Shown in pieces: positions 45,508 through 52,871 of a DNA stretch of 64,000 nucleotides. Numbering within the stretch: the first letter of the stretch is position 1; each line of letters opens with the position of its first letter. The notes beneath the pieces are model-generated. The model was given only the letters and a program-made list of their open reading frames with translations. It had not been told where the DNA came from and did no database searches. This stretch comes from Escherichia phage 235Ecol030PP. The stretch lies in sequence record PP355091.1, one strand, 5' to 3'. The position numbers and the translations under genes were made by a program.

Positions 45508-45684
45508 TTTTCAAGTATTGTAAAACATTCGATGCAATCGTTTATACTGTCGAATCATCTTTTTAGTAGGACGAGAATAGGTTCCTACGCAAGTGGTCAT
45601 ATGAGGGTCCGTAGAATGTCCTTTAATAAAAAGTTTCCAAACCTTACCGCCATTTAACTTTTCAGTATAAACCAATTCGGTTTT
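45508..45684 (-). CDS. small protein, 58 aa, sharing its C-terminal 15 residues with the upstream gene
   Basis: hand-translated; ends ...IRQYKRLHRMFYNT. Confidence 0.4.
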
Positions 45685-45723
45685 CATTAAAATGCCTTGT
45701 CAGAAAAAGAATTTTGAGTTTTT

Positions 45724-46227
45724 TCAAGTATTGTAAAACATTTGATGCAATCGCTTATATTGCCGAATCTTTTGGTCAGAAAAAGAAATTTGATTTTCAA
45801 GCCATTCAATGTATTCTGCGGCAGCTTGCATCAGGTTACCTTCATAGCCATCGTTATTTTCTTGTGCAGCTAATTTAGCTAATGCGTATGAAATACGTTC
45901 ACCTTGAAAATCGGCTTTAGGCTTCTGAACAACTTGATTAGTTTGCTCTACAACTTCTTCAATTTCGCCATTTTCTACTGATTCAGTATTCCACAAACAC
46001 CAATACGTAATTGGCTTATCGTAGATGTTAATAATCTTTCCATCAGAAAGTTCAATTTCAATAATTCCAGTATCAGGTTCTATATCATCTTCACATTCTT
46101 TTGCAAGTTCACGAACTTTAAAGACAGTACCTGCACTAAGTTCCGGCCAGTAATTACATAGCCCTGTATCAGCACGATTAATTCTAAACCACTTATCTAC
46201 TGTAATCATGTCCCATCTCCATATCAA
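45724..46227 (-). CDS. hypothetical protein, 167 aa
   Basis: ORF; C-terminus ...IRQYKRLHQMFYNT. Confidence 0.55.
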   Translation of the reverse strand: MIWRWDMITVDKWFRINRADTGLCNYWPELSAGTVFKVRELAKECEDDIEPDTGIIEIELSDGKIINIYDKPITYWCLWNTESVENGEIEEVVEQTNQVVQKPKADFQGERISYALAKLAAQENNDGYEGNLMQAAAEYIEWLENQISFSDQKIRQYKRLHQMFYNT

Positions 46228-47210: not shown

Positions 47211-47525
47211 TTACGCTTGGTCATTTTCTTCTCGGTCAAATCGGTGTTTACAATGGCGACATTTATAACGAAGATTACTAGTCTGCCAATGGACCAATTG
47301 CACCTGTTCAGTTCCACATTCAGGGCAATTAGGAACGTTTTTAGAAGCACGTTCGCGACGTTCAACCATGACCATTACAGAATCCCAATTAACAGGAGGG
47401 CTATAATCATCACAACCATGAATCTTTCCACGCATTTCCAGATCGTCTTCTTCACCAGCCATAATAATTTTAATTAGACTGGAATTACTAGAAGCTGCAA
47501 TATCTTCTAATAGACGCTTTTTCAT
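47211..47525 (-). CDS. zinc-ribbon protein, 104 aa
   Basis: CPECG...CRHC. Confidence 0.5.
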
Positions 47526-48448
47526 TTCAATACCTCAATAGCATTACGTAAACCATTTGCTTTGGCGGTTAAAGCCTTAAGAACTTTAGTATGCTCTTCA
47601 ATTTGTTTTTCAACTTCAATCAAACGGGCACTGAGATATTCACGTTCTTCGCTCAAGTTATCAACCTTTTCTACTTTAGGTTCTTTTACAACTGGCTTAT
47701 ACGTATTAGGGTTCTTCAGTTTAATTAGAATGCGTGAACTGTATAACATTGAACCATTATCTTCGGTTTCATCATACATTTCCACTACGTCCATGATTTT
47801 TAACATCATGCGGAGTTTATAAGACAACGAACGAATAGTTTTGTTGTGCTTATTAATTTCTTTAGCTGTCATGGTGCCGAGATTACGTGAGTAATAATAA
47901 GGAACCTGGATATTAATTAATACTGATGAACCACCTGGCTTGTGTGTTACTTCATCAGCAATAACCCAGTCCTTAACATGAACTGTATTTGTACGGTCAT
48001 CGCCTGCGGTAAATAGTTTACGAGCATGCTTAAAAAGCATATTCACTTGGTCATTGAATTGACAAGCAAATTTATCAGCAAATTTAGTTTCAGGAATGGT
48101 AGATAACCAATCAGCCAAATGGGTCTTTTTAACATCGTTAACAATAGTAAATTCAACCAAATCGGTTATAGATGTCTCAGATTTAATGAAGCTCGGCTTC
48201 ATAAAATTTTTAATGTTATCGCGAGCTACAGTAGAAGATAACATACGAGAACGTTTAAACCATTCAAGCAAATTGCCCAACGAATGAGAATAAGCGTTTT
48301 GAGTATCTTTACAGATATGATTTTCCTGGCCAACATATTGAAGGAAATCACGAAGAATATTATTAATTACTGCTCTGTGTCCGATCTGATAATTGCGGTG
48401 TTTAGTAATAAGACTGTCAAAATAATCAATATAATGTTTACGAGTCAT
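47522..48448 (-). CDS. hypothetical protein with C-terminal coiled coil, ~308 aa
   Basis: start trimmed to ATG after SD GAGGAG; amphipathic heptad-like C-terminus. Confidence 0.65.
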   Translation of the reverse strand: MTRKHYIDYFDSLITKHRNYQIGHRAVINNILRDFLQYVGQENHICKDTQNAYSHSLGNLLEWFKRSRMLSSTVARDNIKNFMKPSFIKSETSITDLVEFTIVNDVKKTHLADWLSTIPETKFADKFACQFNDQVNMLFKHARKLFTAGDDRTNTVHVKDWVIADEVTHKPGGSSVLINIQVPYYYSRNLGTMTAKEINKHNKTIRSLSYKLRMMLKIMDVVEMYDETEDNGSMLYSSRILIKLKNPNTYKPVVKEPKVEKVDNLSEEREYLSARLIEVEKQIEEHTKVLKALTAKANGLRNAIEVLK

Positions 48449-48477
48449 ATTAATCTCCTCAGTAGAAAGTAAGAACA

Positions 48478-48506
48478 TTATACCACATCCTTGTGGCAAA
48501 GTAAAC
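48478..48506 (-). promoter_or_regulatory. T4-type early promoter
   Basis: GTTTAC...TGGTATAAT. Confidence 0.7.
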
Positions 48507-49525
48507 TAGTTCAGTGCATTTAGTGCATTGTTCAGTTTAGAACGTTGCTTTGTCAGATTTTGAACCCTTGACTGAGCTTGTTCTAACGCCTTTTCAGCTT
48601 CTAACACTTCATTGGTCGCTTTAACGAGTTCATCATCTACTGCCTTAAGAGACTTCTCAATCGCATCCGCGTGCCATTTTTCAACAGGTTTAAGACTCGG
48701 ATTTTCAATAGGAAGAAAATTCACTTTATTGAATTTCCATGCATCTTTATTACTTGAACTATACATCCAAAATTTAGGATCGTTTGATGAGTAATTAGAT
48801 AAATTTAAGTTATCTTGCACTTCTTGCTTTTTCTCTTGCGGGACTTCGTCCTTTCTCAAAAAATCGTATTTAAATGAAACGATCATATCAAGTTCATATG
48901 TTGTTGTATGTTCCCAATTTCGTTCAAAACGAGGTAAAATCTTAGATTGAACAGCAGCAACAACATCCATATACTTAAATGCTTCTGTCAACTGTGATTT
49001 AAGGCATTCACAAATTGAAAGAGAATTTTTAGTATTAGGCTTAAAGCTAATTCGTGCAGTTCTATTATTTTCTTTTAACGGTCTTACTTCCATCCGAAGA
49101 GTATAACCATCAAATTTCAGATTCTTTAAGTTAATATCAGAACCTTTTAATCGACTAGCCGTCGACAAAATTTGCTTTAATTGTTTACGGAACAGAGCAA
49201 TAAATCTCCATTCAAGACGATAATGATTTGGATTAAAAAATCCTGTTGATAAATCGACCTTACTTTGACCAACGCCTTGAACAAATAGAGGATTTTTATA
49301 ATCAATAGTTTTACAGAAATCGGTGAGCTGCTCACGAGCAGTCATTTGAGTAATATACCCTGCTTTACTAAAATTACGCACCCATTCACTGCTATTCATA
49401 TACTTAAAGTGAATGGAACTATTAACTCTATCAGGGTCTAAATTATTTTGGCACAAAAATGTCATAACATTACGAGTATAGCTGGCATTACGAACCATAT
49501 CTTCAATTTGAGAACGAGTTTTCAT
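48506..49525 (-). CDS. hypothetical protein with C-terminal coiled coil, 339 aa
   Basis: ORF; C-terminal LEAEKALEQAQSRVQNL... Confidence 0.65.
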   Translation of the reverse strand: MKTRSQIEDMVRNASYTRNVMTFLCQNNLDPDRVNSSIHFKYMNSSEWVRNFSKAGYITQMTAREQLTDFCKTIDYKNPLFVQGVGQSKVDLSTGFFNPNHYRLEWRFIALFRKQLKQILSTASRLKGSDINLKNLKFDGYTLRMEVRPLKENNRTARISFKPNTKNSLSICECLKSQLTEAFKYMDVVAAVQSKILPRFERNWEHTTTYELDMIVSFKYDFLRKDEVPQEKKQEVQDNLNLSNYSSNDPKFWMYSSSNKDAWKFNKVNFLPIENPSLKPVEKWHADAIEKSLKAVDDELVKATNEVLEAEKALEQAQSRVQNLTKQRSKLNNALNALN

Positions 49526-49533
49526 GGTGTTCC

Positions 49534-50442
49534 TTAAGATTTAAGTAAATCAACAATTTTAATTAATTTTTCACGTTCAGATTTAGCTTTACTACTCAAT
49601 CCAGATAGTCTGAAAATTTCATCATCATATTGCTGAATAGAAATATTTAGCTCTTCAATCTGCTTATTAAAATAAGCAATTTGTTCAGAATGTTTTTCAT
49701 TACTGCGAACTGGTACAGGTTTTGTAGGTAATTTAGATGAACTGGATTCATCCGGGCGATAAATTAAAATACAATTTGAACCAATCGGACATTTAGCACC
49801 AGACACATATTCTAATGTTCCGGCTTCTTTTAAAACTTCAAAAGCTAAACAGAGATGATGCCCCATATTAACATAATCTGTAGAGCGAGCTCTGATGTAA
49901 TAATCATCTCCACGAGTACTAAATTTAAAGCATTTAAGGTCTTCTGTATTATTAGTTTTAAAAATCATTTGTTTATCTAGACCTTTAGCTAATCGAGCGC
50001 CTAATGCTAATAATCGTCGTTGATTTTCCCACAAATCCGCAATCATTTGGTCAAATGATAATTTCGGCATTAGTCGACCATAAAGGTCGTATCCTTTATT
50101 ATAATTGCGAAGGATTTCACTCGCGTTAATGCGAGACAACGCTCCAATTTTATTAAGGGCTTTCATGATGCGATTAGATAAACCCATTCCAGACCCGTTT
50201 GTTCGTTGTAAATGTTTATCTAATCCAAACCCAATATCAACTTTAAATTTATCTAAAATTTCAGCATGAACATCTCTGTCAATAACATTCAAATCCAAAG
50301 TTGGGTTAAATCTATGAAAAAATTTATCTGGCTCTCCACGACGAAGTACAGTCCATTCATTCAATTTTTTATTAACTAAAGATTTAATTACTGCATTGAC
50401 ATTATTAATTACTACTGACATATTTTCCTCACTCAATTTCAA
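49534..50442 (-). CDS. hypothetical protein with C-terminal coiled coil, 302 aa
   Basis: ORF; C-terminal QIEELNISIQQYDDEIFRL... Confidence 0.65.
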   Translation of the reverse strand: MKLSEENMSVVINNVNAVIKSLVNKKLNEWTVLRRGEPDKFFHRFNPTLDLNVIDRDVHAEILDKFKVDIGFGLDKHLQRTNGSGMGLSNRIMKALNKIGALSRINASEILRNYNKGYDLYGRLMPKLSFDQMIADLWENQRRLLALGARLAKGLDKQMIFKTNNTEDLKCFKFSTRGDDYYIRARSTDYVNMGHHLCLAFEVLKEAGTLEYVSGAKCPIGSNCILIYRPDESSSSKLPTKPVPVRSNEKHSEQIAYFNKQIEELNISIQQYDDEIFRLSGLSSKAKSEREKLIKIVDLLKS

Positions 50443-50891: not shown

Positions 50892-51419
50892 TTATGCGAG
50901 TACCGTCTTTAACCGTTCTTCAAACTTCCGAAGAGTATTTTGGCGTTCAGCTCTTTGCTTTTTGTAAGTTTCAATACGCTCTGAAATGAGAGTGTATCGT
51001 TCATTTACTGATTCTTTCATAAAATCAGGAATTTCACGAGAAGCTTTAATCTCGTCAAATTTATCAATAACAGCTTGCTCTTCAGCAATTAAGTTATCAT
51101 ACATCAAAATATCTTTCTTGATGAACTCAATATCTTCTTGAGTTACACGAGATAATTTAGATGCTTTATCCTTTTTGTACTGTTCGTTAGTATCACGAGA
51201 CCAGTGTAATGTACGATTTTTATTCGTATTCTTGTAAATTTCTACAATACCAATCTCATCAATAATAACGATCCAATTCCAACGGGATTTGTAAATTTGT
51301 CCTCCATCAACCGTGATTTCACCTCCGATTGAGATGTCATTAAAGAACTTGCTTTGTGCTTCAGATTTAAATTTACCATCGTTGTAATTTACCAGGTTGA
51401 AAATATCTTTAGCGTTCAT
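50892..51419 (-). CDS. hypothetical protein, ~175 aa (start trimmed)
   Basis: SD GGAGGAA before ATG; upstream track extension is a translated promoter. Confidence 0.6.
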   Translation of the reverse strand: MNAKDIFNLVNYNDGKFKSEAQSKFFNDISIGGEITVDGGQIYKSRWNWIVIIDEIGIVEIYKNTNKNRTLHWSRDTNEQYKKDKASKLSRVTQEDIEFIKKDILMYDNLIAEEQAVIDKFDEIKASREIPDFMKESVNERYTLISERIETYKKQRAERQNTLRKFEERLKTVLA

Positions 51420-51884: not shown

Positions 51885-52871
51885 TTATTTCAGAAGAGTA
51901 ACCTCAGCGATTTCTTGCCAACCGTTTTTGTCGGTCATAATAAAGTCAGCAAGATAAAGAGCAGTACGCAGTGAAACATTGCGTAAACGATTAACATTAA
52001 CTTTCATCCATGATAATGCTTTATAAGTTTCTTCATCAGAAAGACCGCGCTTTTGCATCATGTCGGTTGAAAGAATAACATCTTCAACCCTGACCATAAT
52101 TTCTTCATTAGTGTGAACACCCAAATCTAAATAAACTGAGCGGGACACTAATGCTTGTAAATGTGGAGCAAGTTTAGTACCACGGTCTAATTCGCGGTCA
52201 ATGTCAACGTTTGTGATAAAAACAATCGTTCCTTTAAATTCAAACTCACGCTCAATGCCTTTTTCTTCTAAGTAAGAAGATGCAGTGCTCCAGCAGACTT
52301 TACGGGTCTCTCCAGTGTCCAGAGCAGCTTTCAGAAGATTAAGAATGTCCATATCAGAGAAAACATCCACATCATCAATCAAAAGGACAGAATTCTCTTC
52401 ACGATTATTCCAAAGCTGTTCATAAAGACCGATACCAGAGATTTTACCATTAATGCTTTTATACTCAATGTATCCAATATCATTTGCTTTATTTAAAGCT
52501 TTATCTAAAGAATACGTTTTACCAATACCTGCTGCTCCCGAGATAATTAATGAACGAATGTTTCCGTTAATAATACCATTCGTCATCATTCCCATAACAT
52601 TAAATCTTTTATTAATGCGGGTTTTCATATCTTCATATGATTCTTTAACTTCTTCAACTTTTACACCATCATATGAAATGTCTGATTTGTAAACCCAAAC
52701 ACCGCGACGTTTACCGTCAATTTCAACAAAAACTTTACCATCTCCTTGTGCATCTACCGGAGCATTATCTGGGAACCATTCGCCTAAGAGCTCAAAAGTT
52801 CCAGAGATTTCTTTACCGAAGTAGATACCCTTATTGATAGTTACAGTTTTCATTTTATTCTCCAATTTCAC
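51885..52871 (-). CDS. AAA-like P-loop ATPase, 328 aa
   Basis: Walker A GAAGIGKT, Walker B VLLIDDVD. Confidence 0.7.
   Translation of the reverse strand: MKLENKMKTVTINKGIYFGKEISGTFELLGEWFPDNAPVDAQGDGKVFVEIDGKRRGVWVYKSDISYDGVKVEEVKESYEDMKTRINKRFNVMGMMTNGIINGNIRSLIISGAAGIGKTYSLDKALNKANDIGYIEYKSINGKISGIGLYEQLWNNREENSVLLIDDVDVFSDMDILNLLKAALDTGETRKVCWSTASSYLEEKGIEREFEFKGTIVFITNVDIDRELDRGTKLAPHLQALVSRSVYLDLGVHTNEEIMVRVEDVILSTDMMQKRGLSDEETYKALSWMKVNVNRLRNVSLRTALYLADFIMTDKNGWQEIAEVTLLK

Follow-up and report, generated by a model that had tools for sequence, protein, structure and literature searches.

The window analysed here is a stretch of 64,000 nucleotides (nt) from Escherichia phage 235Ecol030PP (sequence record PP355091.1), and it contains three consecutive minus-strand genes which are, by sequence and synteny, orthologues of T4 nrdC.3, nrdC.5 and nrdC.6. 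Profile comparisons of the encoded proteins indicate that these genes, together with nrdC.4 of T4, make up an ancient family of tandem paralogues, characterized by extreme divergence and not by domain shuffling. Each protein is composed of an N-terminal head, a linker and a C-terminal heptad tail. We propose, with a probability of roughly 0.6, that the array NrdC.3-6 is a family of early counter-defence proteins with variable target-binding heads and self-association tails. The genes have long been annotated as T4 open reading frames (ORFs), and one of them has a published phenotype. Their superfamily relationship is not recorded in databases, which keep the families separate, and it appears to be undescribed in the literature searched; the same appears to be true of the pattern of conserved tails and variable heads and of the rearrangements mapped below.

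Homology of the heads

A preliminary description of this stretch, made from the sequence alone, had proposed a modular family of three proteins with dissimilar N-terminal domains that share only an oligomerisation-like tail, and had named homology of these domains as one result that would speak against it. Pairwise BLASTP among NrdC.3, NrdC.5 and NrdC.6 indeed gave no match, and the only link disclosed by this method is between NrdC.3 and NrdC.4 (25% identity, E-value 4e-7). At the profile level, however, the heads turned out to be homologous. With tails removed, hhalign connects NrdC.3 with NrdC.4 (probability 98%, E-value 5.7e-14) and NrdC.4 with NrdC.5 (56%, 1e-4). In profiles enriched by adding divergent relatives from other genera, the combined NrdC.3 and NrdC.4 heads match NrdC.5 (91.5%, 8.5e-7), and the NrdC.6 clade matches the merged NrdC.3, NrdC.4 and NrdC.5 heads over more than 200 colinear columns (91.2%, 9.9e-7). 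Reversed target profiles, used as a control, reached E-values of only 0.51 and 0.035. Since heads-only profiles match and their reversed controls fail, we regard the four proteins as members of one old paralogue family and not as unrelated heads on a shared tail.

The same relationship is seen in the arrangement of motifs. The helix patterns LSRxNAxxILxNY and LSSxVAxDNIKNF align with each other, and a long helix that terminates in ..RLxxG.. precedes the first strand. The N-terminal sequence M-(K)-T-R-x-(E/H)-Y-I is present in NrdC.3, NrdC.4 and NrdC.5, and colinearity of the proteins extends from their first codons to the tail. The order of elements is equal in the good AlphaFold2 model of NrdC.6 and in the poor one of NrdC.5: N-terminal helices, strands, a helix, two strands, the linker and the tail helix. 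When hidden Markov models of the individual heads were compared with 620 ORFs from all fetched loci, the best matches outside each family were almost all to sibling families.

Tails of different paralogues, on the other hand, resemble each other only in their heptad pattern (tails-only hhalign probability 44% or lower). At the DNA level, repeats between the three genes are limited to short chance matches, which argues against recent duplication or gene conversion and, in combination with the dissimilar tails, against the reuse of a common tail module.

Relatives outside the Tequatrovirus group were detected by comparing the NrdC.6 model with BFVD using Foldseek. Uncharacterised T4-like phage proteins of 304-346 amino acids (aa) match over their full length with probability 1.0 and E-values of 2e-7 to 7e-4; they originate from Kanagawavirus IME523, Tegunavirus fHe-Yen9-01, Pectobacterium phage PM2, Acinetobacter phages Acj9, Acj61 and fHyAci03, and Klebsiella phage Mineola. 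Weaker matches are in Citrobacter phage Merlin (probability 0.98) and Serratia phage CBH8 (0.89). Three of the matching proteins were located in their genomes: in IME523 and Acj61 the gene is found between nrdC.10 and nrdC, where Acj61 has a tandem pair of 304 and 330 aa, and in fHe-Yen9-01 it is placed just upstream of nrdC.10. Each of the three has a significant heptad segment at its C-terminus, which unrelated neighbours of similar size lack. In addition, Dhakavirus-type and other relatives carry NrdC.6, an NrdC.4-like gene and a divergent NrdC.5-like gene, and Mosigvirus SF has NrdC.6-like, NrdC.5-like and NrdC.3-like genes. Judged from these model comparisons, the family is older than the T-even phages.

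The structure search suggested in the preliminary description was productive in one direction, towards phage proteins of the same locus, and did not lead to a solved structure. Profile searches of the PDB with NrdC.3, NrdC.5 and NrdC.6 revealed no relevant relative, and neither did the fold search with the NrdC.6 model; the NrdC.5 profile returned only two chance matches among all PDB chains (E-value 0.049 or worse). Among 1.84 billion representative sequences, the NrdC.5 profile retrieved 13 proteins, none of which connects the head with a family of cellular proteins. Family members or their fragments account for eleven of them, including one with a different head on the NrdC.5 tail, and the other two are an NrdC.5 tail on an unrelated N-terminal part and a low-complexity repeat protein. 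As far as these sequence comparisons reach, the family is absent outside T4-like phages.

Head, linker and heptad tail

To characterize the tails, a home-made heptad score was used in place of Marcoil or DeepCoil, multiplying hydrophobic occupancy of positions a and d by polar occupancy elsewhere, with a penalty for proline and glycine; it was calculated in 35-residue segments and compared with 500 shuffles. The best segment is at the extreme C-terminus in all three proteins. In NrdC.3 it comprises residues 262-296, within a high-scoring span of 258-308 (score 0.70, reached by 3 of 500 shuffles), in NrdC.5 residues 293-327 within 281-339 (0.78, none of 500), and in NrdC.6 residues 239-273 within 238-288 (0.70, none of 500). 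Scores of the neighbouring NrdC.2 and NrdC.7 are at or under those of their shuffles. A regular seam of hydrophobic a and d residues extends through 6-8 heptads in each tail. AlphaFold2 models are in agreement with this periodicity where they were made: NrdC.5 has a single tail helix at 280-338, with a block-mean predicted local distance difference test score (pLDDT) of 62 at residues 281-290 and of 74-94 from residue 291 on, and NrdC.6 has two tail helices, 242-271 and 277-294, broken at SGLSS. The proposed architecture of head, linker and C-terminal heptad segment is thus present in all three proteins, and only the length of the tail needs correction, from about 35 residues to coils of about 45-59.

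The NrdC.3 head (47717-48448, minus strand as all features described here) comprises residues 1-244, and its centre, approximately residues 75-260 and therefore reaching into the linker, is hypervariable between phages. The linker (47657-47716, residues 245-264, KNPNTYKPVVKEPKVEKVDN), with the sequence PNTYKPVVKEPKVEKV, is the only truly Pro/Lys-rich one of the three and represents the least conserved segment in its family, with 39% identity among distant pairs. It is followed by the heptad coil (47525-47656, residues 265-308).

In NrdC.5, the head (48863-49525, residues 1-221) was modelled from a shallow alignment with a mean pLDDT of 49, in the order N-terminal helices, three strands, a helix at 168-184 and two strands. 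Its linker of about 58 residues (48689-48862, residues 222-279) is polar and acidic and ends in ...NPSLKPVEKW, and the heptad helix (48509-48688) comprises residues 280-339. The NrdC.6 head (49744-50421, residues 1-226) has a helical N-terminal part followed by a beta-beta-alpha-beta-beta unit, in a model with a mean pLDDT of 79.5 and a predicted template modelling score of 0.66. It includes the invariant motifs YNKGYDLYGR and NQRRLLALGARLAxGxDKQMxFKTN. The NrdC.6 linker (49699-49743, residues 227-241, SSSSKLPTKPVPVRS) is Ser/Pro-rich and the C-terminal coil (49537-49698, residues 242-295) consists of the two helices mentioned above.

The three linkers had been described as uniformly rich in proline and lysine. 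Proline occurs in all of them, while the composition differs as indicated. Common to all three is a K-P-V motif just ahead of the tail helix, and disorder is predicted before this helix by pLDDT values under 50 at residues 222-275 of NrdC.5 and 227-241 of NrdC.6. The linker of the family is predicted to be disordered, contains proline and ends in a [K/E]-P-[V/I] motif. NrdC.4, a protein of 333 aa, follows the same plan of head, linker and coil.

A significant heptad tail was also observed in NrdC.8 (50892-51419, minus strand), encoded two genes upstream of the array, a protein of 175 aa in which it extends over residues 132-175, with a score reached by none of 500 shuffles. An early-promoter-like sequence, TTTACA-17-TACTAT, is located near this gene (51476-51448).

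Organization and plasticity of the array

Megablast and annotation assign this part of the window to the early region of Tequatrovirus (T4-like) phages, on the minus strand, in the order endonuclease VII, pin, nrdC, nrdC.1, nrdC.2, nrdC.3, nrdC.5, nrdC.6 and nrdC.7-nrdC.10. The nrdC.3 orthologue (47522-48448, 308 aa) matches PHROG 1435 over residues 1-308 (phrog_1435, E-value 2e-117), and the precomputed Pfam family PF26897 is carried by 34 of the 36 proteins returned as its homologues; it shares 97% identity with NrdC.3 as annotated in phage NR1 and 62.7% with that of T4. The nrdC.5 orthologue (48506-49525, 339 aa) belongs to Pfam DUF7235 (PF23882), with residues 1-339 placed on positions 1-307 of the 307 in the profile (E-value 1.4e-124, 416 bits against a cut-off of 30). 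It is 93.8% identical to T4 NrdC.5, with equal length and equal position. The gene is located directly downstream of nrdC.6, between nrdC.10 and nrdC, in an order as in T4 (AF158101.6) and NR1 except for the missing nrdC.4. The nrdC.6 orthologue (49534-50421) matches PHROG 2257 (phrog_2257, E-value 6.6e-152), and all 105 homologues returned carry the precomputed family PF26899. An identical arrangement of three genes was found in phage 215Ecol030PP.

The three ORFs and the sizes of 308 and 339 aa agree with the preliminary description, and the third protein, given there as 302 aa, is shorter. The 302-aa reading (49534-50442) begins at a TTG at 50442, within the end of nrdC.7. A Shine-Dalgarno sequence, GAGGAAA, precedes the ATG at 50421 by 5 nt, and the same start is used in T4 and other relatives. 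Judging by these sequence features, translation almost certainly begins at this ATG, which gives a protein of 295 aa.

In T4 and most of its relatives, four genes follow in a row, nrdC.6,.5,.4 and.3, with nrdC.4 being present in about 93% of the closely related phages. The spacer between nrdC.5 and nrdC.3 of the window, together with ATGACTCGTAA, is identical to the T4 spacer between nrdC.5 and nrdC.4 and to the start of nrdC.4, after which the sequence continues as nrdC.3 (AACATTAT...). This indicates that nrdC.4 was excised by recombination within ACTCGTAA, an 8-nt junction (48438-48445, minus strand) in the T-R codons (codons 2-4) shared by nrdC.4 and nrdC.3. Upstream of nrdC.3 there is a T4 early-promoter-like site (48477-48505, minus strand; TTTACT, 17 nt, TATAAT, with an extended -10 TG; 10 of 12 matches in a promoter scan). 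It includes a CCACA/TGTGG stem-loop within the promoter spacer and is followed by the Shine-Dalgarno sequence GAGGAG at 48455-48460. The site fits TTTACW-N17-TAYWAT, the consensus of PST/T4 PeSL promoters (PMC4122927).

Hyperplastic regions with PeSL-mediated shuffling of cassettes have been described in T4-like phages (Comeau, Arbiol and Krisch 2014; PMC4122927). The array resembles them in its location in a variable early region, in the consensus promoter with a stem-loop, and in genes that are gained, lost and exchanged among close relatives. It differs in that the deletion of nrdC.4 in the window took place through coding microhomology between paralogues, not between two PeSLs, and in the position of the stem-loop inside the promoter spacer.

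Comparison with T4 also disclosed an exchange of the NrdC.3 head. Proteins flanking the array are 97-100% identical in the two phages, whereas NrdC.3 is so divergent as given above. In 30-residue steps along NrdC.3, identity is 80-87% in residues 1-75, 23-73% in residues 76-270 and 93% in the tail. Synonymous divergence (dS) is 1.05 in residues 1-70, 1.32 in residues 71-260 and only 0.11 in the tail (residues 261-308), compared with 0.06-0.11 in flanking genes. The difference between head and tail in dS indicates that the head allele derives from another lineage, with a downstream breakpoint near the linker. Two classes of NrdC.3 alleles occur with similar frequency, as 260 records match that of the window at 95-99% and 279 at 60-80%.

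The comparison across T-even phages proposed in the preliminary description confirmed gain, loss and exchange of genes at this locus. By tblastn, NrdC.6 was found in 741 phage records, being the most widely kept member, NrdC.3 in 653, NrdC.5 in 582 and NrdC.4 in 554. Presence or absence varies for every member, and arrays range from one to four genes, with chimeras, remnants and replacement of head alleles upstream of a conserved tail. Salmonella phage Manna (locus L016, 3215-4252) carries an in-frame chimera of NrdC.6 residues 1 to ~268 and the NrdC.4 linker and coil. The two parts are joined at a shared D-E-I, the second being 94% identical to NrdC.4 residues 251-333, and nrdC.5 and most of nrdC.4 are deleted. 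Phage ACG-C40 retains NrdC.6 and remnants of NrdC.5 and NrdC.3, and in Pinarejo only the last 46 codons of nrdC.6 are left. Furthermore, nrdC.4 is split in one IMG/VR genome, and the match of phage T2 to nrdC.4 is in two pieces. In the T4 reference (AF158101.6; locus L023, 4690-4900, corresponding to window positions 49537-49640), nrdC.6 is annotated as 275 aa and is frameshifted in the coil after ...FNKQIEEL. The +1 frame continues as ISIQQYDDEIFRLSGLSSKAKSEREKLIKIVDLLKS*, exactly as in the window, where the coil is intact, and in most relatives. The frameshift reflects either an error in sequencing or a genuine mutation of the laboratory strain.

A metagenome contig in ENA (k141_89665, 803 bp) encodes a 173-aa protein (positions 120-641) in which a 115-aa head is followed by ...PLIPRPNQQ and a near-identical NrdC.5 tail, and then by the leader and start of nrdC.4. 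A tblastn search of 50,697 phage records gave no match to this head. The protein may represent a genuine replacement of the head or a chimera produced by assembly. In another metagenome protein (P0033, 299 aa), residues ~145-265 of NrdC.5 appear to be joined to residues ~135-308 of NrdC.3 at a KFNKVN / QFNDQVN microhomology.

Conservation is higher in the tail than in the head in each of the four families. Identity of tail and head in distant pairs is 83 and 60% in NrdC.3 and 65 and 44% in NrdC.6, and the values in the other two families are 69 and 44%, and 36 and 26%.

Some neighbouring genes were also inspected. NrdC.2 (47211-47525, minus strand, 104 aa) has a stop that overlaps the array at its nrdC.3 end. 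Its C-terminal part contains the signature CPxC...CxxC of a zinc ribbon, with several weak matches to zinc-ribbon families in Pfam; some relatives (NR1 and locus L003) have another version, of 129 aa, with an extended C-terminus. NrdC.10 (51885-52853, minus strand), similar to AAA-type ATPases, shows identities of at least 99% in 446 phage records and can be detected in 1,311, including those of Vibrio, Aeromonas and jumbo phages, in contrast to the hypervariable array 2 kb away. Between endonuclease VII and pin (45724-46209, minus strand), an ORF of 58 aa (45511-45687, minus strand) ends in ...IRQYKRLHRMFYNT, 14 residues that are almost those of the Pin C-terminus (...IRQYKRLHQMFYNT). From its sequence, the ORF appears to be a duplicate of the 3' end of pin; phage 215Ecol030PP has it as well, annotated as a hypothetical protein.

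Function of the array proteins

Hundreds of phage records in GenBank, among them that of Salmonella phage Manna, name NrdC.2-NrdC.10, array genes included, "thioredoxin". Array proteins have no thioredoxin-family match in Pfam or NCBIfam, and identity with thioredoxin or glutaredoxin was rejected for lack of the domain; the label has spread from the gene-name prefix nrdC. Searches of Pfam, NCBIfam and PADLOC assigned no functional domain and no enzyme or defence match to the three proteins, and no PADLOC model was matched by any of the four proteins tested. Weak matches of NrdC.3 to PHL (below the cut-off) and to a phage-integrase SAM-like domain, as well as that of the NrdC.5 tail to SEC10/PgrA, were dismissed as chance or coiled-coil noise, and a tyrosine-recombinase match was dismissed at 17.6 bits against a cut-off of 279. 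Literature searches on nrdC.3, nrdC.4, nrdC.6, DUF7235 and anti-Dsr1 returned only one eLife paper and passing mentions.

In that paper (Srikant, Guegler and Laub, eLife 2022; PMC9391042), a T4 clone from which a set of adjacent accessory genes had been lost was unable to plate on ECOR17. Deletion of dsr1 in ECOR17 restored plating, and ECOR17 dsr1 on a plasmid protected MG1655 against the T4 deletion clone (PMC9391042). The early gene nrdC.5, supplied in trans, restored plating of the deletion phage on MG1655 with ECOR17 dsr1 (PMC9391042). Dsr1 is a SIR2 NADase, and its TPR sensor is reported to recognise phage major capsid proteins (2026 preprint, PMC12803255). The activity described is that of the T4 allele against ECOR17 Dsr1, and the window allele is likened to the T4 allele by sequence. 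The T4 array itself is different, with nrdC.4 present, the other class of NrdC.3 head allele and a frameshifted NrdC.6 coil. The preliminary description had suggested host-takeover or exclusion factors, and for NrdC.5 the published counter-defence against Dsr1 comes close to this in spirit; for NrdC.3 and NrdC.6 such a role is suggested by family membership.

The array occupies an early region of T4-like phages which is non-essential and is bounded by nrdC and nrdC.10. In the mechanism that we propose, NrdC.3-6 are made early, at least the nrdC.3 of the window from its own predicted promoter. The head, of about 220-250 residues and diverged almost beyond sequence recognition, would bind and neutralise a host immune protein, and the tail, a heptad helix of 45-59 residues, would form dimers or higher oligomers and thus provide valency. 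NrdC.5 would block Dsr1, presumably by direct binding, before the capsid protein appears. Because of their family membership, the behaviour of the locus and the lack of an enzyme signature, NrdC.3 and NrdC.6 may address analogous but different host targets. Turnover of the array proceeds by recombination, in the window by the excision of nrdC.4 via shared 5' codons and by the joining of a foreign NrdC.3 head allele to the local tail.

Two known systems offer functional parallels. DSAD1 is a phage inhibitor of the sirtuin defence DSR2 which reportedly acts by binding to it (PMC10973363, PMC10981675, PMC11087589). As a phage protein countering a SIR2 NADase defence, it is a proposed analogue of NrdC.5 acting on Dsr1, with the differences that its target is DSR2 and that binding of NrdC.5 to Dsr1 is putative. 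Homology of DSAD1 to NrdC.3, NrdC.5 or NrdC.6 was not found in profile searches of all PDB sequences or in the fold search with the NrdC.6 model. The T4 internal proteins IPI, IPII and IPIII are likewise non-essential, variable among T-even phages and, as single members, directed against specific host defences; IPI counters GmrSD and IPIII acts in ECOR17 (PMC9391042). They differ in being packaged via a targeting sequence and injected, whereas NrdC.3-6 are taken to be early, cytoplasmic proteins with a coiled-coil tail and have no sequence relationship to internal proteins.

Several observations weigh against a family-wide counter-defence role or against the family itself. The role was shown only for the T4 NrdC.5 allele against ECOR17 Dsr1, by complementation (PMC9391042), and the literature searched contains neither binding or biochemical data on NrdC.5 nor a published function for NrdC.3 or NrdC.6. 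Long invariant polar motifs in the NrdC.6 head could mean a catalytic or ligand site and not a variable binding surface. Whole-gene ratios of nonsynonymous to synonymous substitution (dN/dS) between T4 and the window are 0.08-0.33 and so give no direct sign of positive selection; the lowest, 0.08, belongs to the nearly universal NrdC.6, which is contrary to a family-wide arms race. NrdC.6 is also the weakest link in the family. Its head is non-significant against the others when families are compared one by one in heads-only hhalign, single-sequence intermediates reach E-values of ~1e-3 at best against family profiles, and the connection requires profiles enriched with three intermediates and a merged NrdC.3, NrdC.4 and NrdC.5 alignment. 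Among significant Foldseek matches of the NrdC.6 model there is no Tequatrovirus NrdC.3, NrdC.4 or NrdC.5, and the Dhakavirus NrdC.5-like protein reaches an E-value of only 0.46. With the low quality of the NrdC.5 model, the structural agreement of its head with that of NrdC.6 is one of element order.

Part of this evidence can be accommodated if the paralogue family is accepted and NrdC.3 and NrdC.6 are considered early modulators of host takeover or housekeeping, which would bind, for example, host or phage machinery of replication, transcription or nucleotide metabolism, with NrdC.5 and Dsr1 as a special case. The genes are located in the early region beside the nucleotide-metabolism genes nrdC, nrdD and tk. 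NrdC.6 is kept in essentially all relatives, and its strictly invariant head motifs and low dN/dS suggest a conserved function rather than a surface shaped by an arms race. Dispensability of NrdC.6 is nevertheless indicated by the remnant in Pinarejo and the frameshifted coil in the T4 reference. T4 lost the array region at no cost on laboratory hosts (PMC9391042), and presence is variable for every member. We find this explanation rather unlikely, if the strongest of those competing with counter-defence.

Another explanation concerns the tail, which might, instead of self-association or in addition to it, serve as a docking helix for a constant partner of each paralogue, such as a membrane complex or a protein of host or phage; the head would then be the effector. 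It would account for the tail being the most conserved segment within each family, for invariant exposed polar residues such as DDEIF and K280/E282/R283 in NrdC.6, and for the modelled NrdC.6 tail being helix-break-helix and not a single rod. The a/d seam described above is, however, typical of self-associating coils, and no partner is known. We consider this explanation unlikely; it is compatible with counter-defence by NrdC.3-6 and does not exclude it.

The least probable explanation, that globular domains of separate origin each acquired a common oligomerisation module and were swapped as cassettes, so that the tail alone would define the family, draws on the missing pairwise BLASTP matches among the three heads, the Manna chimera, in which linker and tail of NrdC.4 follow the head of NrdC.6, the 803-bp contig with its unmatched head upstream of nrdC.4, and the NrdC.3 breakpoint near the junction of head and tail, but it is hardly tenable in view of significant and colinear heads-only profiles with failing reversed controls, the shared first codons (MTR/MKTR), paralogue tails that are dissimilar beyond heptads and genes without DNA repeats between them, and chimeras that are single genomes made by deletions or, in the contig, a possible assembly artefact.

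A more specific version of the counter-defence proposal, which we regard as speculative and doubtful at present, holds that NrdC.3-6 act as oligomeric decoys which inhibit immune sensors of the host, a different one for each paralogue. The early head would occupy the ligand-binding domain of the sensor before the late phage trigger protein appears; for NrdC.5, the sensor would be the TPR domain of Dsr1 and the trigger the major capsid protein. The constant coil would supply multivalency to hold a multimeric sensor, and head alleles would be swapped between phages at the linker as hosts change. If this is true, NrdC.3, NrdC.4 and NrdC.6 point to three further pairs of sensor and inhibitor in E. 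coli.

Few counter-defence genes are known in T4, and most of its accessory genes are without assigned function. The locus illustrates how such arrays evolve, through deletion via paralogue microhomology, replacement of head alleles and in-frame chimeras. If the array is one family, the phenotype of NrdC.5 against Dsr1 offers a starting point for work on three further genes and on their relatives in phages of Acinetobacter, Yersinia, Enterobacter and other T4-like phages, and it provides a model to test, in which a variable head determines the choice of target and a conserved coil ensures oligomerisation. Paralogues and head alleles carried by a therapeutic T4-like phage may predict part of its host range.

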